From the NCBI GenBank assembly GCA_963704365.1, contig OY969899.1:88121-152120 (forward strand): DNA of 64,000 nt, in the 5' to 3' direction. The notes beneath the pieces are model-generated. The model was not told the DNA's origin and made no database searches. It worked only from the letters and a program-made list of their open reading frames with translations. Position numbers and translations under genes: made by a program. Position 1 is the first letter of the stretch. Every line of letters begins with the position of its first letter. This document shows, piece by piece, positions 3,423 to 41,926 of the stretch. The DNA comes from Parachlamydiales bacterium. Its GTDB lineage: Bacteria > Chlamydiota > Chlamydiia > Chlamydiales > JAJFMK01.

Positions 3423-6400
3423 ATGACTTCTGCACCAGAAAATGAGAGGATGGATATCCATGTGGCGACAGGCTTGTATCAAGCCTGGATGGCACAGACT
3501 GGAAAGGGAGAAAAGTCAGCACTCAATCGTCTACCTCCCGAAGAGAGAAAAGCGATGGAAGAGGTGGTCAAATTCTTCCTCAATTACCAAAAGAGTTTGC
3601 CAACCCAACCTCCAGAGATTACAGACTCTTACAAAGCCTTGATGAAAAGGTTAGGGGTATCGGCAAAAGAGCTAGAAAAAGCGAATTTTTCCCCACAAAG
3701 AATCAAGGATCAATTCTTTCTTTTGATGGAAGAGGCAGCAGTCAAAACGGCTGGTGTACCCCCTAAGCAGTTGCAGAAAGCTTTATTTGATGAAGTTTCC
3801 AAATTGATGTATGAGAGGGAAAAGTACTCTGCTTTGAACCATCCAGTGGTTAGAGCCCAACTCGAAAAACTCCTTTCCTCTTTACCTACTGGCTTAGCTC
3901 AAGAAAGGATCCTTCCAGAACTTAAAAAAGGGTTTAATCAAGCTATAGATGAAAGTTTTCCAGCAGATCTTGCCAAGCGTGTGGCCAGGACCGCCTCTAT
4001 CCTTCGCCCTCTCATCATGCGAGATGAGAAAATTTACTCCAGTATTGCAAAAGCAGAAAGCTTTGCCGTTTGGATGAAGAGGGACGGAAAAAAGGTAGAA
4101 GAGGCTTTCAGCAGGCTTTTGAAGCAAGCCTCAAAAGATTATCAAATCGGGCAAGAGAAACATCCTAATCAGGCCATTTTAAACAGGGCACTCGAACTCC
4201 TCGACGGTATCCATAGTGGAAAATGGATGTTGTCCAGTCAAGAAGATACTGCCGTTTTACGAAATGATTGGGTGAAAAAAGAGATGGAAGGGGTGCTCCA
4301 ATTAGGGAAGCAGAAGGGATTAAATCCCCTCCAGGTCCAACAAGAATTGAGCCGGGTCCTGGCAAGCTTTAAAACAGCATCGATAGAGAAAAGTGGTTTA
4401 TCCTCAGACAATCTTCTGGTTTGGTTGGCCACAGGGACCTTTTTACCTTGGTTTTTGAAGTTCCCTTCTTTACTTGGTTTTACGGTTCGGGAAGAATCTG
4501 TCCAAAAAGCAGCCGTTTTAAGAGAAGAGGTGTCAGCCGATCTTGCCCACCTGCTGCGGGAGAAGAACCGGATAGGCACAGCCCTACATGAAAAGTTAAT
4601 CGCCCATGCCGACTTAGCGCCTCTTCGAGCCGCCTATAAAACCTTTGCTAAACAGGTTGAAGAGACACATTTGAAATATGGGGAAATCGAAAGAAGGGTA
4701 GGTCAAAAACTTCGAACCCCTTTCTTTGCAGGAGTCTTTGCTGAAGTCCTCTATGAACATCAGAAATTTTTACGTGAACAGGTGGCTTACTCGAAGGCCC
4801 TTGGGCTATTTCTAGCTCAAGAAGATGAAGTTATCCGTGGGCAAGAGTTTAAAACCAAAGAGGCTTTACCCTCCCGTTTTGCAGATCATCCCGAGGTTAA
4901 AGAGATCGTAAAACAGGCAGATACTCTTTTGCCCCGTGCCCATTTCTGGGCCGAGCAAGCCGACCAAAAAGGGAGTTTGGAAGGGACGATGACTTTGGCT
5001 CGGGAATGTGATGATCAAACCGACTGGAGTGATCGGCATCCTCTTCGTCTTCAAGCAAATTATGAAAAAGCGATGGCTCTTGCCGACCGGGCTATAAAAA
5101 TAGCTGAAAACCGTGATCTGTCCCGATTTCCCCTCCTTGGGGCCCTTTCAAAAGCGTTCGGGTGCCAATCTTTTCAAAAAGAGGGTCTTGCTAAAGCAAG
5201 ACAATTAAAAGCCGATATCTGCCTCAAAGCCTACTTAGCGGATAAAAGTGGTCTCTATCTCGAGGCTGTTGTCAAAGCCCTCATTGAATTGAGAGACATG
5301 AAAGCCAATAGTGCCAATCAAGTCACACAGGAATTGAAGGCTATTGAGGCTTTACCTACAGATGAAGATAAAATCGGTTATTTATTTGGTTTCCGTCCAC
5401 TCGAATTGAAAACAGATGAGACAGAGGTATTCCAAGTTAAAGGGTTATTAGATGAAATTTTGACGATTTACAAAAAAAGTCCGCAGAATGAAGCCAAACA
5501 GTTGCTCAAGTTGATCAACGAAGGTGTAGAGTCTGCCAACAGCACTTTTGTCGATCTATTAGAAGAAAGATACCGTCTGTTTGGCGGTCAGATAGCTTTG
5601 ACTCAAAATGAATTAAATGCCCTTACCCTCATCGGATTGTCAGGGTCGGATGGGGCTAAACGGCTTTTAGATAGGCTGAAAGATCGTTTCCCCTCCGCCT
5701 CTTTATTTTGCCAAAATGTCCTTTCTGGCCTCTCGTTCAAGACATTCGGAGAACCTCACGATCTTAGTAGAACTGAGATGATAAAGATCCTCACGCAACT
5801 AGCGGTTACATCCGAGAAAAAATTCATTCGGCTTGTTCAAGATCTAGATGTAAAGAGAAATTCCGGTCCAGACTACTTTAAATTTCTTAAAACTGATGAT
5901 TCATTACTGCAAAAGGCAGAGTCAGATGTACTAGCAGAGCTCAAGAAGGAGTATCCGCACGAAATAATCAGGGCTGAAGAGATGATAGCGGCAGTCGTAA
6001 AAACCTTAAGTGGAGTCGAACAGACCCTATTGCTTGAGAGTGGAACAGACGAATATTTTAAATCCCAAAGAGATGAAAAGGACTTAAAAGATCTTTTGAC
6101 CCCTTATCAAGACCAGCCAGAGGCGCTGATCTATCTGTTTAATCGAGGGCTAGAAGCGAAAGATCAACATTTGTTGATAGCTATTTATCAACCTCTTTTC
6201 GAGTATTTTTATCAAAAATTTGTAGAGGAGGGGGGGTACTTTTCCGAACCTGAATTATTGTTTTTGAGACAGGTTGAGCAACTTGATAGTCATAGTTTCG
6301 GTGATAAAAATAGAGCCATTGTCCAAGACTTGAAAACAGCGTCTAAGGCTTTTAGTCAGCTTGGGGAAAAAAGAGAGGTTTATCTAGATGTCGGTCCCTT

Positions 6401-7527: not shown

Positions 7528-8410
7528 AATTTATCTGCAGTAGAGGGAAAAGGCGCTCTTTCATCATGTACTCTTTTCCAAGGACATTATAGACCTGTTG
7601 ATTGTGCTCTTTAGCTAGAAGTCCAGCCCCATTGATTCCACCAAAATACCAGCCCGATTCAAGACTCAGGGTAAAAATGCCCCAGGCTGTGTGCCCATGT
7701 TGAAAAAGTTCAACGGTGGCCCAGATGAAAAGTCCATTCAGGAGAAAAGAGGTGATCGCACTTCTTGTTTGTCCCATGTAGAGGTAGCCGGCACCTGGAA
7801 GAATGGCCTGCATCGCACGGACCTTATTTGGCGATATCCTCAAGTCACAATAGCAATTTTTTAGGGGTTCTGGTGGATTGAAAGTCAGTACCTGTTGACC
7901 TTGTTCGGTGGCCTGTTGTTCAGGTTCTGACATTAGGGGAAGGATAGCTTCAGCTTTTTCACATTGCCCGATTCTTTCATAACACTCCCTAAGGGTGGTG
8001 ACAAGGGTATCAAAGGCGGGGAATGTCCGGTCAACCGACGAGATGGAACCAGTCTCAAAAATGATAACCGCCTCTTGGTATTTGCCCCCGAGGTAATAGG
8101 CAAAAAGGAGGCAAAAATCGATCTCTTGGATGCGAGAGATCGGAGGATTGAGGAAACCAGCCCGTTTAAAGCAGGTGATGGCGCGGAAAAGGTCGAGCTC
8201 TTGGGCAAAAGCTTTTCCCATTTGCAGCTCTATAGCCCAAGGCTCTTTTTGTTCAGAGGGTGAGAGAGGGGGGAAGGGCGAGGGCCAAGAGTTGACAAGA
8301 CGTTCAGTTGGAATCAGGCAAATCGAGGGGACGATCTCGTCATTGTACATCGCCTTTCCGCATCCGGCGCAAAGAAGAAGAAGGAGGAGGGAGAGTGTGT
8401 TTTTAAGCAT
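7517..8410 (-). CDS. Putative lipoprotein with TPR-like region and C-terminal membrane helices
   Basis: Lipobox-like N-terminus (LLLLLLCAGCGK), TPR-like helices, and a C-terminal hydrophobic PGAGYLYMGQ...FLLNGLFIWATVELF segment. It overlaps the yidD-like gene by 11 nt, suggesting an operon. Confidence 0.6.
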   Translation of the reverse strand: MLKNTLSLLLLLLCAGCGKAMYNDEIVPSICLIPTERLVNSWPSPFPPLSPSEQKEPWAIELQMGKAFAQELDLFRAITCFKRAGFLNPPISRIQEIDFCLLFAYYLGGKYQEAVIIFETGSISSVDRTFPAFDTLVTTLRECYERIGQCEKAEAILPLMSEPEQQATEQGQQVLTFNPPEPLKNCYCDLRISPNKVRAMQAILPGAGYLYMGQTRSAITSFLLNGLFIWATVELFQHGHTAWGIFTLSLESGWYFGGINGAGLLAKEHNQQVYNVLGKEYMMKERLFPLLQINYGF

Positions 8411-8423
8411 ACAGTTTGTATTT

Positions 8424-8731
8424 TGTAGCTCGAGACTAAAGAGCCACTTGCAAAAATCCGTTAAGTGGAGAAACAGCCCCAGAGGGACGAAATATGAAAG
8501 CCTAGGACGAAGTCCTAGGTAACAATTGGTAATAGAATTGGAGTCCTGGAGGGACGATATATCGTTTTCCTCAAGTACTCCTGGAGCTATTAAATGCCGT
8601 CCCTCCAGGACTCCAATTTTTTAATCATTCTGGTTCCTGGGCCTTCGACCCAGGCTTTCATATCTCGGCCCTCCGGGCCTATTTTGTAACCATTCTGAAT
8701 TTTGCAAGTGGCTCTTTAGTCTCGAGCTACA
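8424..8731. repeat. 308-bp palindromic (MITE/REP-cluster-like) element with perfect 32-bp terminal inverted repeats
   Basis: tgtagctcgagactaaagagccacttgcaaaa (8424-8455) is the exact reverse complement of 8700-8731. The two arms remain imperfectly complementary across the whole element. They contain sub-hairpins (cctaggaCGAAGtcctagg 8501-8519; cctgggccttcgacccagg 8636-8654). Related arms occur at 50684-50958, 61693-61754 and 34304-34333. Confidence 0.85.
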
Positions 8732-15840: not shown

Positions 15841-17169
15841 ATGGAGACCTTCGAATCAGGTACAGTCGATGAGATCCTAGGGGCACTCGATAACCTAGAT
15901 CTTAGCAATGTCAACGGCCGCATCACCGAAGTGATCGGGATGCTTATTCGAGCTGTAGTTCCCAATGTCAAAATTGGAGAAGTTTGCCTTGTCAAAAGAC
16001 AGGGAATGGAACCTCTTCGTTGTGAGGTGGTTGGCTTTACGCAAGAAGAGGTGATCTTATCTCCTCTCGGAGAGATGAGCGGCATCGGACCTTCATCTGA
16101 AGTCATCTCCTTAAATCTTCCCCTTTTTGTCAAAGTAGGTCCTGGTCTTTTAGGCCGCGTTTTGAACGGACTTGGCGAGCCGATGGACTTAGATGTAAAG
16201 GGTCCTTTTGTCAATGTCGATGATGTTTACCCTATTAACCAAGCCCCACCCGATCCGCTGAAACGTGAAAGGATCGATAAACCAATATCCGTAGGAGTTC
16301 GGTGTATCGATGCTGTCCTCACCACAGGGATTGGTCAGCGGGTCGGGATTTTTGCAGCAGCGGGCGGTGGTAAATCTACACTTCTCGGAATGATTGCCAG
16401 AAACGCGGTTGCTGATGTCAACGTGATTGCCCTGGTAGGGGAGCGGGGGCGAGAATTACGAGATTTTATTGAAAAAGATTTAGGTCCGGAAGGGCTTAAA
16501 CGGTCTGTCGTTATAGTCTCAACCTCCGATCAGCCTTCGCAGGTGCGTCTGAACGCAGCTTATGTGGGTACTGCAATTGCTGAATATTTCCGTGACCAAG
16601 GTAAGTCCGTTATTTTGATGATGGACTCTGTCACCCGCTTTGCTCGGGCCTTAAGGGAAGTTGGGTTGGCTGCAGGTGAACCACCTGCAAGAGCTGGCTA
16701 CACACCTTCTGTGTTCTCTACTTTACCCAAGTTGTTGGAACGTTCTGGCCGTTCTGATAAAGGGTCGATCACTGCCTTTTATACCATCTTGGTGGCAGGT
16801 GATGATATGAATGAACCTGTCGCAGATGAAGTCCGTTCTATTTTGGACGGCCATATCATCCTGTCGGCAGATTTAGCCCGGCAATTCCACTATCCGGCTG
16901 TTGATGTCCTCTCATCGGCAAGTCGGGTCATGCCCTCCATTGTCCCACGAGAACAGCTTGAGCTAGTGGGTAAGTTGCGGGAAGTATTGGCCAATTATAA
17001 AAAGAACGAACTGTTAATCAAGATTGGAGAATACAAGCGCGGATCTGATCGGATGGGCGATTTTGCCATCGATAATATCGATAAAGTGATCAAGTTCTTA
17101 AAGCAGGGGGTCGATGAGAAATGTAGTTATGATGAATCTCTCCGGCTTCTTCGTGCGATGTTTAAATGA
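15841..17169 (+). CDS. sctN: T3SS ATPase SctN/CdsN
   Basis: Walker A (AAAGGGKSTLLGMIA), Walker B (VILMMDSVTRFA), and F1/FliI-like sequence over the full length. Confidence 0.95.
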   Translation: METFESGTVDEILGALDNLDLSNVNGRITEVIGMLIRAVVPNVKIGEVCLVKRQGMEPLRCEVVGFTQEEVILSPLGEMSGIGPSSEVISLNLPLFVKVGPGLLGRVLNGLGEPMDLDVKGPFVNVDDVYPINQAPPDPLKRERIDKPISVGVRCIDAVLTTGIGQRVGIFAAAGGGKSTLLGMIARNAVADVNVIALVGERGRELRDFIEKDLGPEGLKRSVVIVSTSDQPSQVRLNAAYVGTAIAEYFRDQGKSVILMMDSVTRFARALREVGLAAGEPPARAGYTPSVFSTLPKLLERSGRSDKGSITAFYTILVAGDDMNEPVADEVRSILDGHIILSADLARQFHYPAVDVLSSASRVMPSIVPREQLELVGKLREVLANYKKNELLIKIGEYKRGSDRMGDFAIDNIDKVIKFLKQGVDEKCSYDESLRLLRAMFK

Positions 17170-17669
17170 TAGATCAGAAGCTTAAGTATCCGCTTGAGGA
17201 TATCCTAAAGGTCAAGGAGAGGAGGGTTGAAGAGGCTGAAAAGCAACTTCAACTTAGAAAGCAAGAGCTAGTAAAAGAACAGGGAAAATTAAAAGAACGA
17301 GAAAAAGAGCGGGATCGGGTCAAGGGGCATTACAACGATAAGTTACGACAACTACGTGAAGAGTTTGACCATGGGACGACAAGTCCAAAAGTGATCGACA
17401 TGAAGGCCTACATTAAATTGGTCAAAGAGAACCTTGCAGTAGAAGAAAAAAAGGTTGCTGACCAAAAAGAACAGGTTAAAGTGGCCGAACAAAACGTTGT
17501 AAAGGCTAAAAAAGAGTTAGATCTTCGGCAAAAAGAGGTGGACAAAGTGAAAGAGCACCGTGCCGACTGGATCAAAGGGATCATGCGAGAAATGGAAGCC
17601 GATGAGGCCAGAGTTCAAGATGAGCTTGGTAATATCATTTTCTCGTTACATAATCGGCAGAAGCAGTAG
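17166..17669 (+). CDS. sctO: T3SS stalk protein SctO/CdsO
   Basis: A 167-aa K/E-rich coiled-coil ORF that overlaps the sctN stop (ATGA). It sits in the CT670 position. Confidence 0.75.
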   Translation: MIDQKLKYPLEDILKVKERRVEEAEKQLQLRKQELVKEQGKLKEREKERDRVKGHYNDKLRQLREEFDHGTTSPKVIDMKAYIKLVKENLAVEEKKVADQKEQVKVAEQNVVKAKKELDLRQKEVDKVKEHRADWIKGIMREMEADEARVQDELGNIIFSLHNRQKQ

Positions 17670-17678
17670 GGGGTTTGT

Positions 17679-18554
17679 ATGTTCGACGACACTAGCAATT
17701 TAGGGGTTTCATTCAACGCCCAACCTCCACCCATTAAACAAGACGACAGAACTGTCAACCAGCCCCGAAAAGAGACAAGGGAAGATAGTAAATTTAAAAG
17801 GCTTTTAAAGACCGATCAGCGAGAAGACCTGGAAGGGGAAGAGGAAGTGGCTGCTGCTTCCCAAGCTGCTGGCGGCGGTGCACCTGTGAATAGGGCTAAA
17901 CCAAAAACTAGTTTTTCTTTAGATTACGCTCTAGAAGATACAGGAAAAGATGATCTTCTTGCCCTTATCAATACTGTCGAGGATAAATCGAAACTAGGTT
18001 CGGGTACAGCTTCTACTAGTACAACAGGTGCTTTTGCAGCCGGGTCAGATGGTAAAAATATTGCCATTGGTGGTGTAGAAGGGGCAGATGGGGGCGATGC
18101 TGGGGGATCTGGCGCTGTTAAAGATGCCGAAGCTTCAAGACGTACCGAAATGTGGCAAATGATTGAAAAACTGGTTGATACGATTACAGCAATGAAAAGC
18201 GATGGAAAGACAGAAACAACCATCACTTTGAATGAGCCACGCCTTTTCCAAGGTGCTGTGATCAAAATCGATGAGTATGACCAAGCCAAAGGGCAATTCA
18301 ATATTGCTTTCCAAAACTTGTCTCCTGACGCAAAAGCGATGCTTGATATGCAGGTAAACAAAGATGGGCTCAAAAAAGCCCTCGAGGACCGTGGTTATAT
18401 GTTGCATATCATGACAACAAGTCTTGAACTCGATAAACCAAAAGCTCCGGACGCTCAAAGCCAACCCTTTTTCCAACAAAGGCAACAAGGCCAACAACAA
18501 GGTCAGCAGCAACAAAAAAGGGAACAGCCACAGCAAGAAGAAGACGACTTCTAA
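17679..18554 (+). CDS. sctP: T3SS needle-length/substrate-switch protein SctP/CdsP
   Basis: The N-terminal half is disordered and G/A/D-rich. The C-terminal part is T3S4-like (TETTITLNEPRLFQGAVIKIDEYDQAKGQFNIAFQNLSPDAKAMLD), followed by a Q-rich tail. CT671 position. Confidence 0.7.
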   Translation: MFDDTSNLGVSFNAQPPPIKQDDRTVNQPRKETREDSKFKRLLKTDQREDLEGEEEVAAASQAAGGGAPVNRAKPKTSFSLDYALEDTGKDDLLALINTVEDKSKLGSGTASTSTTGAFAAGSDGKNIAIGGVEGADGGDAGGSGAVKDAEASRRTEMWQMIEKLVDTITAMKSDGKTETTITLNEPRLFQGAVIKIDEYDQAKGQFNIAFQNLSPDAKAMLDMQVNKDGLKKALEDRGYMLHIMTTSLELDKPKAPDAQSQPFFQQRQQGQQQGQQQQKREQPQQEEDDF

Positions 18555-18642
18555 ATGCGCAACGCGTTTGGAGCGCTAAAGGGCCTTGTTGCATAAGTCC
18601 TCATTACCTAGCATTTTTATAGAATGCTCTTAGAAAAGAAAG

Positions 18643-18869
18643 AGACCGAAGGTCTTAAATTGCAACAGCCCGTGGGCAACGCCCCATAAGCGCTAACCTA
18701 AGAAAAGGTATCTTTTTTAGGTCCTGATTGATTTTAATGAAGTGATTTCAACAAAATTCGATTTGCAAAAATACCGTTATAAGCAGCCTGAAAGGCTGAA
18801 ACTGCAACAGCCCATGGCAACGCCATGGGTCAAGATTCGAAAATAAATTTGGCAGTCTGAAGGACTGCG
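18643..18869. repeat. Left inverted REP array of the RAYT module
   Basis: It contains the hairpins agacCGAAGgtct (18643-18655), cagccTGAAAggctg (18784-18798), cccatggc-aac-gccatggg and gcagtcTGAAGgactgc (18852-18868). The unit tgcaacagccc(g/a)tgg is repeated. Confidence 0.85.
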
Positions 18870-18880
18870 AGAGGCCAAAA

Positions 18881-19333
18881 ATGTCACAATCTCTTTCCTG
18901 CATTCTTGTTCACATCATATTTAGCACAAAAATGCGCCGACCTTTTATCCACTCTAAAATTCAGCAAGACCTTTACAGTTATATGGCTGGTACTGCCAAA
19001 GCGCTGGATTGTTATGTGCATAAAATTGGAGGTGTTGAAGACCACGTCCATCTTCTGCTTTCTCTTCCACGAACTTTGACCTTAAGCAAACTCATCGAAG
19101 AGGTTAAGAAAGGATCCTCCAAATGGGTGAAAACTAAAGGAGAAGCTTACAAAGATTTTAGCTGGCAAAAGGGGTATGGAGCTTTTTCTATTGGCCAATC
19201 GAATTTCGGAGCCCTACAAAAATATATTGAAAACCAGGCTGAGCATCATAAGAAGGTGTCTTTTCAAGATGAGTTTCATGTCTTTCTAAAAAAATATGGG
19301 ATAGAATACGACGAAAATTATCTGTGGGAGTAG
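18881..19333 (+). CDS. tnpA: IS200/IS605-family Y1 transposase, REP-associated (RAYT-like)
   Basis: A 150-aa protein with an HUH motif (EDHVHLLLSLP) and a C-terminal catalytic Tyr region (GALQKYIENQAEHHKK). It has the typical COG1943-like sequence ILVHIIFSTKMRRPFI...WQKGYGAFSI. Confidence 0.9.
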   Translation: MSQSLSCILVHIIFSTKMRRPFIHSKIQQDLYSYMAGTAKALDCYVHKIGGVEDHVHLLLSLPRTLTLSKLIEEVKKGSSKWVKTKGEAYKDFSWQKGYGAFSIGQSNFGALQKYIENQAEHHKKVSFQDEFHVFLKKYGIEYDENYLWE

Positions 19334-19346
19334 CCGATCTCAAAGT

Positions 19347-19573
19347 CGCAGTCCTTCAGACTGCCAAATTTATTTTTGAATCTTGACCCATGGCGTTGCC
19401 ATGGGCTGTTGCAGTTTCAGCCTTTCAGGCTGCTTATAACGGTATTTTTGCAAATCGAATTTTTGTTGAAATCACTTCATTAAAATCAATCAGGACCTAA
19501 AAAAGACACCTTTTCTTAAGTTAGCGCTTATGGGCGCTGCCCACGGGCTGTTGCAATTTAAGACCTTCGGTCT
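19347..19573. repeat. Right inverted REP array of the RAYT module
   Basis: Reverse complement of 18643-18869. Confidence 0.85.
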
Positions 19574-19763
19574 ATTATTCAAGCGGAGCATTTCATCATG
19601 AAGATTCTCTCGCGATCTCACAGTCTGAGGTAGCTAATTATGCAACAAGGCCGTGCTAAAGTTCTCTTTAGCTTTCATATACTTCATGATCTTTATCTAT
19701 ATTGCGCGTCAAGTTAAACAAGTAGGTTTTGAGTTAACGAATGGAACGTGATATAAAGAGGGA

Positions 19764-20936
19764 ATGATAATAGAGACGCAACCAGGCCCCTCTCCCTTGG
19801 CCCCTTTTCCGTGGAACTGGCTCGAAGAGTTGGATCCTGTCTTTCTAGATCTTGAAGGGATTCCCTTAAGCTCTTCCCCGAAAGGGTTTTCTTTAGAAAA
19901 TTTTGAGAAGAAATTAAATGAGAAATTGAAGATTCAAGGTGTTGTCGAAATCCTTGATCCTATTCCGTTTGAAGCAAAGAATGGAGGGGATAAAGCTGTT
20001 TCCTTTTCCCTACCTGGTATGCCAGGTAGCTTTGCTCTTGTCATTCCAAGGGCAGAACTTGAAGAACTTCTACTTTTTCTATTGGGTGGCAAACGGGGAG
20101 GAGTTGTATCTGACGAGTACCTCGATCCTTTCTGGCGTTTCCTTGTCGATACGATCAAAAATAGCTTTGCCGAGAGTTTTACCGAATCCAGAGCCCTGAA
20201 CTTACAGCAGGGGGGTGAAGAGATTCCCTCTCCTCCAGCCCTTCAATTTCCACTAGAATTTTCGATAGGGGATGAAACTTTTTCTGCCGCACTTGTGACA
20301 AGCGATCAGTTTATCAAAGAGTGGCGTAAAAGTGGCCTTAAAAGCATTCGCAGGGGTCGTCTTGCCGATTTACTAAAAGCCAGAATCGAGATCCCGATTG
20401 ATGTAGTCATTGGGGGGATCGAGCTTCCAAAAAGCGACTGGAAAACGATCGAAGAGGGTGATACCTTACTTTTAGATCATCTTACATATGATCCTGGTGC
20501 CGAAAAAGGAGACGCTATTTTCTTTTTCGGAGAGCATCCACTTTTCAGAATAAAAGCAAAAACAGGGGCCATCAAAATCATTGAGCAGGCCAGGGGAGTA
20601 AAGATTTTTATGCCACTTGAACCAACGCAGCCCGTGCCTGAAAAAGTGCCAGAAGAGGAAATTGAGCCAGTGCCAGAGGGGATGCCCTCAGTTCCTAAGG
20701 AAGATAGAGGTGCACCTGTGCCATTACACGATTTGCCTTTGCAAATCCGTATCGAGATGGGTCGATTTAAACTGCCTCTAAATCAAGTTTTGGAGTTGCA
20801 GGAAGGGAATATTTTGAAAGTGGATGTTGATCCGCGGAAAGGTGTTGACCTTGTCGTCGAAGGAAAAGTCATCGGACGGGGAGAGCTTGTAAAAATAGGC
20901 GATCTCGTTGGTGTGAGGATCACAGACCTGAAGTAA
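19764..20936 (+). CDS. sctQ: T3SS cytoplasmic sorting-platform protein SctQ/CdsQ
   Basis: C-terminal SpoA/FliN domain (LPLQIRIEMGRFKLPLNQVLELQEGNILKVDVDPRKGVDLVVEGKVIGRGELVKIGDLVGVRITDL). CT672 position. Confidence 0.85.
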   Translation: MIIETQPGPSPLAPFPWNWLEELDPVFLDLEGIPLSSSPKGFSLENFEKKLNEKLKIQGVVEILDPIPFEAKNGGDKAVSFSLPGMPGSFALVIPRAELEELLLFLLGGKRGGVVSDEYLDPFWRFLVDTIKNSFAESFTESRALNLQQGGEEIPSPPALQFPLEFSIGDETFSAALVTSDQFIKEWRKSGLKSIRRGRLADLLKARIEIPIDVVIGGIELPKSDWKTIEEGDTLLLDHLTYDPGAEKGDAIFFFGEHPLFRIKAKTGAIKIIEQARGVKIFMPLEPTQPVPEKVPEEEIEPVPEGMPSVPKEDRGAPVPLHDLPLQIRIEMGRFKLPLNQVLELQEGNILKVDVDPRKGVDLVVEGKVIGRGELVKIGDLVGVRITDLK

Positions 20937-20940
20937 TGGT

Positions 20941-22407
20941 ATGGAAAAGCTTCCTCAAAAGGTAGGGCCATTTCCGATTGAGGCCCTCCTCGATCGGGGT
21001 GGTATGTCCACGCTTTATCTAGCTCAACACCCCGAGACAAAAGAGACGATTGTCATCAAAGTTTTAGATGAAAAGTTTCTGGAGCGCAAAGAGGTTCTAG
21101 ACCGTTTTTTACACGAGTGTGTTCTGCTTCGTGAGTTAAATCACCCTGGTATTGTTCGTGCGATAGATGCCGGACAGTGGGAGGGGGGATACTATCTAGC
21201 ATTAGAATATGTTCAGGGTGTCTCTCTCAGAAAATGGATCCAGCAGACCCCTATCAGCCTTCCAAGGGCTTTGCAAATCATCCTTCAAATTGCAAAGGCC
21301 GTCTGTCATTTGCACACGCACGGTATTATCCACCGCGATTTAAAACCAGAAAATCTCCTTCTCTCGGAAGATGGAACCGTGAAACTGATCGACTTGGGGA
21401 TAGCCCACCGAATTGATGAGGAAAAGGACAGCGACGACGCTGCGCGGTTTATCGGTACCCCTAGTTACATGAGTCCAGAGCAGCAAAGTGATCCAACAAA
21501 TGTCTCTTTCCCGTCAGACATTTTTTCCCTAGGGATTATCGCCTACGAACTTATTTTAGGAAGGCTTTCGCATGGCCACATCCATCTCACATTGATGCCT
21601 AAAGGATTTGGGAAAATTTTATCTAAGGCCCTTCAGCCGAGGGCAGAAGAGCGATACCAAGATTTAGTCGATTTCATTACCGATGTTGTTGATTATCAGA
21701 CAAAAGTGCTAGAAAGCCCTTCTAAGGAAGGGTTGTCTCCCCTTGCTCTTGCGCTGGAAGGGCTAGATAAGGGGTTAGAAGATTTATCTCCTAAAGTCCC
21801 TCCCAAGCTTGACCACGCTGAGGTGGTTTGGTCAAGTCATCGGGGGGTGATTTCAGTCCCCTTTGTCTTTGATCTGATTCCTCAGAAAGGAGGGGCCCTT
21901 TTTTTCTTCGGAGAGTCTGGTAGTTTTGGCCCAAGAGGGGCCCTAGAAGCGGCCCTATTGCGAGGAATTGAGCTTGGCCTAGTTGGTAGCCTCCAAGAGC
22001 GGGGAGAGCGCTTGAAGAGCCTTGTGGAGAATGACCCCAGCGCCCCCCTATACAAAAGCGCCTATCTTGAAATTCAAGGAAATCACTTCACCTTCCTCTC
22101 CTTTGGTACCCCCATGTTAGTCAGGATTAAGGAGGGGGGAAGTAGAGAGACATTTGGAGGGGGTGCTCCTGCCCTTGGAGTTATCACCCCTGGGAAACTC
22201 CCTGTTGTCCATGGGGAATGGTCTAGAGGAGATTTTCTCCTTTTTGATCCCTCCGGCCTATTAGATACGTTACTCGATCAATTTCCCCCTTTAGCAACGG
22301 ACCCCAAAAGGTGGCTTAATTTGGTTGAAAGTCGATTTAAGAGTCTTTCACCCAGTCGCCTAGAAGGCCGCTCCTCGTTCTTCATCTTATTTATCAACAT
22401 CCTGTAG
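20941..22407 (+). CDS. pkn5: Ser/Thr protein kinase Pkn5 with C-terminal SpoIIE/PP2C-like domain
   Basis: Hanks kinase motifs are present: VIKVL (Lys), HRDLKPENLL, DLG, GTPSYMSPE. The C-terminal ~180 aa resemble a SpoIIE phosphatase fold (see finding). CT673 position. Confidence 0.85.
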   Translation: MEKLPQKVGPFPIEALLDRGGMSTLYLAQHPETKETIVIKVLDEKFLERKEVLDRFLHECVLLRELNHPGIVRAIDAGQWEGGYYLALEYVQGVSLRKWIQQTPISLPRALQIILQIAKAVCHLHTHGIIHRDLKPENLLLSEDGTVKLIDLGIAHRIDEEKDSDDAARFIGTPSYMSPEQQSDPTNVSFPSDIFSLGIIAYELILGRLSHGHIHLTLMPKGFGKILSKALQPRAEERYQDLVDFITDVVDYQTKVLESPSKEGLSPLALALEGLDKGLEDLSPKVPPKLDHAEVVWSSHRGVISVPFVFDLIPQKGGALFFFGESGSFGPRGALEAALLRGIELGLVGSLQERGERLKSLVENDPSAPLYKSAYLEIQGNHFTFLSFGTPMLVRIKEGGSRETFGGGAPALGVITPGKLPVVHGEWSRGDFLLFDPSGLLDTLLDQFPPLATDPKRWLNLVESRFKSLSPSRLEGRSSFFILFINIL

Positions 22408-40924: not shown

Positions 40925-41926
40925 TTAAATTGCTTCGTCTAACTTTCTGAGGATGAATAGAAGCTCTTCTAGCTCACTGTTGGTGATTGTTTCCTCATCT
41001 GGATCCGCTAAAAATTCGACTACATCTAACTCCTCAGTGGAAATCGGTGTTGAAAAACCTTTAACAAATTCTTTCTGAAGTTGATCTACTAGTTGACTCC
41101 GTTCTTTTAAAGTGGCTTCAATCTCTTTTTGGCCAAAGTTTCTTTCTTGCAATGAGGGAATTAGATCGATCACTTTTATGATCTCACTTAATTCGACGAC
41201 CCATTTCCCTTGCTGATCAATTTTCTCTTTTATCGTTTCTTTTAATTTCACCCTTTCGGTTCCAAAAGTAGTTTTCAGATCCTCAATGTCTTTCTGTATT
41301 TCAATAAAAAGATCTTTGCTTTTTGAATCAATGCTGTGCAGTTGAGTTACAAAAAAGTTTGGATTTTCCGGGATTTTTAGAGCTTCTATCTGTTTACTTC
41401 TTGCATCTAGAAAAAGGATGATCTTTGGAAGGTCAAAACTTTGGGTCTGCAGAGATGGCATTTGCCTTAAGGTATCGTTGTCGGCAAGTTCACATATCTC
41501 GTCGATCGTTTGCCTCATCTGTTCTATCAAATAGATTTGATCCCACAAGCCTTCTTCCGTATACCCTTTAGCTAGAAGAGCGGAGTGAAATTGCTGCAGT
41601 TTTTTGATGGCTTGATCCAATTGGCTTGAAGTGAAGATAAAATGGAATTTTTCGACCACTTTAACGATCGAATCGACAAGCTTCTGACACTCTTTTGGGT
41701 TTTCTTTCTGGGCATTCTCAAGAGACTTGTGCAGTTGACTTAACCTTTTCGCACTTTTTCCCTCGTTTGATGCCACCATGCTCAAGGCTTTTGCCACTGC
41801 CCACTTTGTCTTCTCTGAGAGATGGCTAAATTTAGCCGGCGACATCACCTGAGAGGCTACCCCTAGCAGCTCTTGTTTGAGGGTGAAAAATGGTCCCTCG
41901 GGCTCTTTAGAAAAATGAATGTTCAT
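40925..41926 (-). CDS. Hypothetical coiled-coil protein downstream of an LcrH-type chaperone; candidate chaperoned T3S substrate
   Basis: A 333-aa helical, K/E-rich protein with no strongly hydrophobic segment. It has the same orientation as the chaperone gene at 42128..42658. Confidence 0.6.
   Translation of the reverse strand: MNIHFSKEPEGPFFTLKQELLGVASQVMSPAKFSHLSEKTKWAVAKALSMVASNEGKSAKRLSQLHKSLENAQKENPKECQKLVDSIVKVVEKFHFIFTSSQLDQAIKKLQQFHSALLAKGYTEEGLWDQIYLIEQMRQTIDEICELADNDTLRQMPSLQTQSFDLPKIILFLDARSKQIEALKIPENPNFFVTQLHSIDSKSKDLFIEIQKDIEDLKTTFGTERVKLKETIKEKIDQQGKWVVELSEIIKVIDLIPSLQERNFGQKEIEATLKERSQLVDQLQKEFVKGFSTPISTEELDVVEFLADPDEETITNSELEELLFILRKLDEAI

Follow-up and report, generated by a model that had tools for sequence, protein, structure and literature searches.

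Repetitive extragenic palindromic (REP) sequences and their REP-associated tyrosine transposases (RAYTs) are the standard case of a domesticated transposase that maintains small structured repeats throughout a genome. All accepted cases known to us pair class 2 enzymes with species-specific palindromes that carry a GTAG foot. In the classification of Quentin, Siguier, Chandler and Fichant (2018, PMC6006769), canonical RAYTs form class 2, with its Y---NP motif, and subclass 1.2 is listed as 'REP: no'; this subclass is a low-copy group without IS200-type ends, with a median protein length of 148 aa, an occurrence mostly in Cyanobacteria and Bacteroidetes, and only 36% identity between copies within one genome. 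Here we describe a gene whose product fits subclass 1.2 in a 64-kb stretch of DNA from an environmental chlamydia (Parachlamydiales bacterium, contig OY969899.1; the window hereafter), where a Y1/HUH gene and two inverted arms fill the spacer between sctP and sctQ of the type III secretion system (T3SS) operon. On balance we favor the interpretation of this spacer as a REPtron-like module inserted at this site, in which a class 1, subclass 1.2 Y1/HUH nuclease acting on single-stranded DNA is accompanied by a mirrored cognate unit of ~88 nt.

REPtrons, represented by E. coli TnpA-REP (class 2.2) with its REP/BIME sequences and by the Pseudomonas REPINs, likewise consist of a single Y1/HUH gene between inverted structured repeats, and they too have numerous gene-less copies of the repeat, commonly arranged as inverted doublets of two subtypes. 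The chlamydial module differs in that its enzyme is of class 1 (Y---Q) instead of class 2 (Y---NP), its repeat measures ~88 nt, forms three hairpins and lacks a GTAG foot, the repeat core is conserved across phyla and not species-specific, and the gene-bearing module has itself moved. With the IS200/IS605 insertion sequences (IS200, IS608, ISDra2; subclass 1.1, with gene-less PATE derivatives) it shares small subterminal hairpins, one of them beside the ribosome-binding site, and these elements supply the closest solved structures, in which the HUH and YxxxQ residues align. Their asymmetric ends, however, occupy a single strand, in contrast to the whole units mirrored in 230-nt arms here; their W motif is W[TS] and not WQ, and the present module lacks tnpB. 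Near-identical multiple copies, a further trait of IS200/IS605, are seen in one related locus (L003) with two 99.1% identical genes; in the source assembly the exact protein is encoded at one place.

TIRYTs (2013, PMC3733652) also hold a Y1 gene between terminal inverted repeats (TIRs), some of which belong to repeat families, but they encode long class 2.1 proteins with helix-turn-helix tails and have GGGGWSAS-type TIRs, neither of which is found here. With subclass 1.2 as published (PMC6006769) the module shares protein length (150 aa against the median of 148), the DH[IV]H, WQ and Y---Q--HH motifs and the ~30-aa tail, and to the low copy number of the subclass correspond one place for the exact protein in the source assembly and two full copies plus a truncated one in L003; it departs from that description in its occurrence in Chlamydiae and other phyla and in its inverted, dispersed three-hairpin repeat. 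Nezha and other cyanobacterial MITEs (miniature inverted-repeat transposable elements) were also considered and set aside as classical TIR and direct-repeat MITEs, tied to ISNpu3 and unrelated to the present element.

A Y1 gene between mirrored arms

The Y1 gene (18881-19333, + strand; 150 aa; Pfam Y1_Tnp, E = 7e-28) lies between a left arm at 18640-18870 (+) and a right arm at 19346-19576 (-) that is its mirror image. Aligned in inverted orientation over ~232 columns, the two arms are 97% identical and differ by 4 mismatches and 2 indels of one base each (blastn E = 4e-111), and the gaps between the arms and the open reading frame (ORF) measure 10 and 12 nt, or 11 and 13 nt with the slightly shorter arms of the first-pass annotation. 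Each arm is built from a half unit, a linker and a full three-hairpin unit. On the left, the half unit (18644-18685, +; nhmmer E = 8.6e-8) comprises hairpin A (AGACC-GAA-GGTCT), the spacer TTGCAAC and a degenerate hairpin B; it is followed by a linker of 98 nt (18686-18783, +) and by the full unit (18785-18872, +; E = 7e-20), which folds as single-stranded DNA into three hairpins (z = -4.4). The latter consists of hairpin A (AGCC-TGAAA-GGCT), the spacer TGCAAC, hairpin B (CCCATGGC-AAC-GCCATGGG) and hairpin C (GCAGTC-TGAAG-GACTGC); it stops 8 nt short of the ATG, and its GAGAGG tail is positioned like a ribosome-binding site. On the right, the same parts appear inverted, with the full unit at 19346-19431 (-; E = 1.6e-19), a linker of ~98 nt at 19433-19531 and the half unit at 19532-19573 (-; E = 1.3e-7). 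The nhmmer profile behind these values was built from relatives' copies only.

The first-pass annotation had described a 150-aa HUH/Y1 gene bracketed by inverted arms that contain a repeated short unit, and all of this is present; the motif TGCAACAGCCCRTGG occurs four times in the window, two per arm, where chance predicts 0.16 occurrences and none of 100 shuffles yields four. The weaker complementarity that it had noted outside the arms resolves into a terminal inverted repeat of 15 nt without a mismatch, formed by GGCCTTGTTGCATAA (18582-18596) and its inverted partner TTATGCAACAAGGCC (19638-19652) and referred to below as the outer boxes. The exact protein is found at one place in the source assembly, on a contig of ~2.6 Mb. 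A chance arrangement or an assembly artifact is rejected, as three assemblies hold this protein in this context and the arms-gene-arms layout recurs on an independent contig (L002).

The L002 module is collinear with that of the window over ~900 nt at 88.6% identity and sits beside unrelated genes. The arms of the two are 91-96% identical (92-96% for the left arm of the window) and the genes 86%, and 40 of the 65 differences between the genes fall at third codon positions; the gene thus evolves under purifying selection, and gene and arms are both constrained, the arms more strongly. The ~98-nt linker is near-identical across the four arms of the window and L002, was found in no locus beyond these two, and is conserved above the level of the coding sequence.

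The protein displays the diagnostic features of subclass 1.2, and its sequence therefore fits TnpA-Y1 subclass 1.2 of class 1 and not the canonical RAYTs. These features are an HuH motif D54-H55-V56-H57 that agrees with DH[IV]H, a W motif W95-Q96 ('WQ'), a Y motif Y115-IEN-Q119-AE-H122-H123 (Y---Q--HH), the length of 150 aa and a conserved C-terminal tail of ~30 aa, SFQDEYRxFLKKYxIxYDEKYVWD. Across 17 aligned relatives, H55, H57, the WQ pair, Y115, Q119 and H123 are invariant and H122 is kept in at least 90%; the window protein has its catalytic HUH and Y---Q motifs intact. More than 3000 homologues were found, several of them in Chlamydiae, nearly all exactly 150 aa long and 58-82% identical, and the subclass can be described as a widespread family, uniformly of 150 aa and 50-80% identical across phyla. 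The closest solved structures in the PDB are the TnpA proteins of Sulfolobus, IS608 and ISDra2, with weak matches (E about 1e-5) that align the HUH and YxxxQ residues; the same search gave no match to the E. coli TnpA-REP structures at E ≤ 1.

The three-hairpin unit, its dispersal and its geometry

Comparison with the loci of relatives identifies the ~88-nt full unit as the conserved inner part of each arm. Its consensus runs through hairpin A (AGCC-TGAAA-GGCT), an invariant TTGCAAC spacer, hairpin B (CCCAGGGC-AWC-GCCCTGGG), an AT-rich linker and hairpin C (GCAGCC-TGNAG-GGCTGC), and hairpins A and C can be written as one consensus, AGCC-TGNAR-GGCT. As single-stranded DNA, either strand of the unit folds into exactly these three hairpins (z about -4.5). 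The hairpin structure is under selection: over 72 aligned copies, 98.1% of cells are paired, compared with 91.4% after shuffling and at most 52% with slid partners, compensatory changes occur at 8 of the 19 pairs, and the covariation score of 0.202 (0.074 in the shuffled control) was reached by 0 of 500 shuffles. Rfam contains no family matching the unit, the only hit (E = 0.49) being far below the gathering score. A GT[AG]G foot is absent from every hairpin of the unit, GTAG being seen only in the hairpin C loop of some copies. All that the flanks have in common is a T ahead of hairpin A and NAGA behind hairpin C, and no convincing conserved cleavage tetranucleotide was found at the unit edges.

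The unit is dispersed in gene-less copies in related genomes. Numbers of copies were taken from a pattern scan with one genome per species and at least 120 loci, and are lower bounds. The metagenome-assembled genome (MAG) MFD01633 holds at least 68 profile matches on 19 loci, four other Chlamydiae MAGs hold at least 29, 22, 15 and 12 units, and Marinilabilia (Bacteroidota) holds at least 14 partial units; full units are present in contigs of Planctomycetales, Blastocatellia and Limisphaerales. Among the matches listed, at least 225 unit matches stand against 2 Y1 genes in 107 loci, and units outnumber genes in the relatives by roughly 100 to 1. The 13 pattern-scan loci without a profile match agree with the number of chance pattern matches expected, and nothing was found in the viral sequences scanned for the unit. 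Many gene-less units are paired as inverted doublets of two unit subtypes, in the manner of REPINs and BIMEs.

Two of the related loci show peculiarities of their own. In L006 (5497-6180), a Y1 gene is followed immediately downstream by four tandem unit copies with a period of 156 nt and one inverted copy, and the 248-aa gene annotated there in public records (5455-6201) is probably a spurious ORF that spans the repeats. In L013 (4158-4608), which belongs to MFD01633, the MAG with the most units, the match to the Y1 gene is split between residues 1-57 and 72-150, and the gene is possibly interrupted or frameshifted.

The arrangement of gene and repeat is fixed across the family. We considered 80 independent metagenome loci with family members 47-67% identical to the window protein, using both unit profiles combined (that of the flanking unit and that of the variant described below). 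A unit lies within 300 nt of the gene in 41 of the 80; upstream, the nearest one is on the + strand in 31 of 32 loci and typically stops 8-50 nt short of the ATG, and downstream, the nearest one is on the - strand in 25 of 29. Because this orientation recurs in independent loci, the inverted flanking geometry is characteristic of the family, at odds with the 'REP: no' of the 2018 classification. Loci without a detected unit may carry units too diverged for both profiles. Inverted structured repeats, gene-less dispersal in relatives and recurrent geometry bear out the earlier view that the architecture is REPtron-like and not that of IS200 with asymmetric ends. In a limited literature collection, we found no paper that links subclass 1.2 to repeats or describes REP-like elements in Chlamydiae.

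A broader proposal, plausible in our view and held more tentatively than the REPtron-like interpretation of this one locus, is that subclass 1.2 Y1 nucleases are the enzymes of a hitherto unrecognized ancient REPtron-type system. Its unit core, …TTGCAAC-AGCCCAGGGC-AWC-GCCCTGGG…, would be conserved in Chlamydiota, Bacteroidota, Planctomycetota, Acidobacteriota and Verrucomicrobiota, would split into sub-families within a genome, and would ride on TIR-bounded carriers.

Within the window, profile matches below threshold (E of 0.4-2.4) correspond to a real diverged variant of the unit, termed family 2. It forms a gene-less inverted doublet that fills an intergenic gap at 8424-8731, a second inverted doublet between convergent ORFs at 50709-50941, and a partial single unit at 61677-61756 (-). 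These sites share the A-spacer-B-linker-C layout and fold as three hairpins, with hairpin A' (GTCC-CGGAG-GGAC), the spacer GAAATATGAAA and hairpin B' (GCCCATG-TCGTAGG-CATGGGT); their outer ends share CACTTGCAAAA. Family 2 is also present in L129, L012, L002 and L003.

Insertion, mobility and competing explanations

The closest relatives of the T3SS locus (L127 and L128; SctQ 74% identical) have the gene order sctN-sctO-sctP-sctQ-kinase with a sctP-sctQ spacer of 98 nt and no Y1 gene, which supports the original suggestion that the module is an insertion into a conserved junction, here in the spacer of this lineage. The Y1 gene is likewise absent from the junction in L129, L130 (SctQ 48%) and L131 (SctQ 31%). 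Kept across the relatives' junctions are the position of the sctP stop codon, which the insertion has left unaltered, and ~20 nt 5' of the sctQ ATG (ATATAAAGAGGGAATG), so that the ribosome-binding region of sctQ is intact. The spacers of the window and L127 align only over these last ~20 nt, and the exact insertion point relative to L127 could not be placed. A different palindromic element of ~250 nt, with arms AGCATTTACAAATTAACCACAGAGGCACAGAGATCACAGAGGACA…, occupies the same spacer in L129 (5790-6030; SctQ 74% identical), and its motif is absent from the window. As the junction holds a different palindromic element there, it seems to be a place where palindromic repeats land time and again.

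With IS608 TnpA and E. coli TnpA-REP as models, a dimeric enzyme would most likely bind the small hairpins extruded in single-stranded DNA. Cutting and rejoining beside the hairpins would then lead to the spread or upkeep of gene-less units and inverted doublets around the genome. At this locus, a half unit and a lineage-specific linker lengthen each flanking unit into an arm of 230 nt, and the module most probably came in within a 1071-nt element bounded by the outer boxes (18582-19652), whose target was a small palindrome.

Several observations weigh against this REPtron-like interpretation. To our knowledge, HUH transposition does not yield target duplications, and the outer boxes are accompanied by 9-bp direct repeats; in L003, gene and flanks exist in duplicate at 99.1% identity, as in an IS and unlike a 'domesticated' gene. 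The first-pass annotation had implied that the unit is repeated elsewhere, and within the 64 kb this fails for the exact flanking unit, for which the relatives' profile finds the four module copies and nothing else at E < 0.1, and holds for the diverged variant at its three gene-less sites. The dispersed copies of the window are therefore a different sequence variant and may need a different enzyme; no second Y1 gene was found in the window, and the source contig is not among the matches listed in the dispersal scan. Finally, the published survey of subclass 1.2 found no associated REPs (PMC6006769).

One alternative, which we consider unlikely though it is the strongest of those weighed, is that insertion was carried out by a cut-and-paste DDE-type transposase acting on the 15-nt boxes, with the Y1 module as a passenger in a TIR-bounded, MITE-like carrier that recognizes a 9-bp target. 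This explanation concerns the route of arrival and is compatible with a REPtron-like nature of the module. The element lies in a separate small palindromic repeat, whose left half (18560-18581) matches CGAAGCGTTTGGAGTGCTAAAC in L012, L097 and L110 and ends in the 9-mer GCGCTAAAG (18573-18581); to the right of the element (19653-19672), a direct repeat of this 9-mer, GTGCTAAAG (19653-19661; 8/9 identical), is followed by the rest of the target hairpin, GCTAAAG-TTCT-CTTTAGC. The same boxes bound gene-less elements in a Parachlamydiales MAG, namely 279-nt doublets and forms of 424 and 756 nt. There are eight box-bounded elements in all (279, 424, 756 and 1071 nt); the direct repeat, GTGCTAAAC/GTTTAGCAC, matches at 9/9 in three elements and at 8/9 in two, one of which is that of the window, and the target sequence is the same throughout. 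Given the boxes and the 8/9 direct repeat, as in the gene-less doublets, the module may have moved as a TIR-bounded element. Decay has affected the sequence between boxes and arms but not the perfect boxes, which enclose either unit family (family 2 in the 756-nt form); the closest module, L002, lacks boxes. Evidence in the opposite direction comes from L012 doublet #2, whose flanks are inverted and not direct, from two further elements with poor repeats, and from the search for a matching transposase of the box-bounded elements, which identified none. In addition, the TTGCA core of the boxes resembles the TTGCAAC of the unit. As HUH enzymes are not known to duplicate their targets, the carrier would have been mobilized by a DDE enzyme, or else the boxes would be Y1 sites and the 'duplication' a site-specific copy of the target.

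Neither the outer boxes nor the direct repeats had been noticed in the first-pass annotation. The target palindrome, CGAAGCGTTTGGAGTGCTAAAC-TCCT-GTTTAGCACTCCAAACGCTTCG, is represented in the window by a copy at 50652-50685, which abuts the second family-2 doublet, and by the left half at 18560-18581, and is also found in L012, L097 and L110. Box-bounded elements prefer this palindrome, and remnants of it adjoin two of the repeat sites in the window.

Somewhat less probable still is that the module is an autonomous IS200-like insertion sequence (IS) with inverted ends, selfish and not domesticated, in which the entire unit-gene-unit module would copy itself and whose gene-less units and doublets would be MITE-like deletion derivatives. 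Such an element would explain why the surroundings of the module differ between the window and L002 and why the closest T3SS relatives lack it, and the protein passes the NCBIfam IS200 equivalog model NF033573 (76.8 bits, cut-off 55). Because L003 duplicates the gene with its flanks at 99.1% identity, the gene-bearing module is mobile in at least some genomes. That repeat-rich locus (L003:2344-9066) contains two full Y1 genes, a truncated third, a gene-less palindrome at 8065-8477 and a neighboring rve-type transposase. Against an autonomous IS stand the single place of the protein in the source assembly, the low copy number of the subclass with its divergent same-genome copies (PMC6006769), the excess of units over genes in relatives, and the mirror-image ends, since known Y1 insertion sequences have asymmetric ends on the same strand.

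The canonical REP-RAYT system (class 2, TnpA-REP) that was first proposed for the locus is refuted on its defining sequence features, and we give it hardly any weight. Inverted structured repeats do flank the gene, and the JGI label 'RayT' on some homologues is merely the name of COG1943; yet the protein scores 26.4 bits against the cut-off of 80 for NCBIfam REP_Tyr_transpos (NF047646), has YIENQ and not Y---NP, matches no E. coli TnpA-REP structure at E ≤ 1 and is accompanied by no GT[AG]G foot. What survives of the RAYT label is the architecture and the likely mode of action, not the family membership, and the arms, described in the first-pass annotation as arrays of short hairpins with a repeated unit, are built on the ~88-nt three-hairpin unit and not on a GTAG-footed REP of 20-40 nt. 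Equally improbable is an ancestral T3SS regulatory spacer with a long RNA stem or terminator and an incidental Y1 gene: the stem potential of the arms and a terminator-like hairpin after the Y1 stop codon would suit it, and it is contradicted by the 98-nt junctions of relatives, the L002 module away from T3SS genes, the genome-wide units in relatives and the lack of an Rfam match.

Operon context and biological meaning

The module is surrounded by sctN (15841-17169), sctO (17166-17669) and a SctP-like gene (17679-18554, +; 291 aa) on one side and by sctQ (19764-20936, +; TIGR02551, 113 bits, cut-off 100.8) and a Pkn5-like kinase gene (20941-22407) on the other. The SctP assignment draws on the position of the gene between sctO and sctQ and on a weak match (E = 0.001) to a DUF5421/CdsP-family protein of L131; its C-terminal part shares 74% nucleotide identity with L127 and L129. 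A read-through RNA would pair the arms into a stem of ~230 bp, as pointed out earlier, which follows trivially from an inverted repeat of 97% identity. Close behind the stop codon of the Y1 gene, hairpin C (19348-19364) has a T-rich tract after it on the + strand and is, in that reading, terminator-like. Uncoupling of sctQ from the upstream promoter by the insertion, another suggestion of the first-pass annotation, is neither supported nor excluded; promoter-like sites are at chance level (3 found, 3.6 expected) and a terminator-like hairpin is present even in the L127 spacer, which has no insertion, both of which weigh against it.

Elsewhere in the window, a 957-aa ORF (31411-34284, +) has an SH2-domain match (27.6 bits, cut-off 21) and three nearly exact, in-frame 72-nt tandem repeats (31787-32002), and may encode a eukaryote-like effector. 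Two pairs of long inverted repeats, 30724-31222/36395-36868 and 36862-37095/40896-41129, are 97-98% complementary over 200-234 nt; they overlap the ends of the ORFs 29103-31169 and 40925-41926, and the large ORFs between them have no Pfam match. Genes for tRNA-Gly(gcc) and tRNA-Gly(ccc) are adjacent at 63053-63222 (-).

For the chlamydiae the implications are modest. Palindromic elements insert into the sctP-sctQ spacer repeatedly and are tolerated there, as in the window and L129, and the T3SS operon structure of environmental chlamydiae should therefore not be assumed from that of Chlamydia. For the enzyme family, the REPtron-like interpretation, if true, would mean that class 1 proteins do a job of the REP/RAYT type, with a larger, three-hairpin repeat that is conserved across phyla. 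Subclass 1.2 would thereby gain a testable substrate, defined hairpins with a conserved TTGCAAC spacer, and would offer a tractable case for how HUH enzymes read DNA hairpins.

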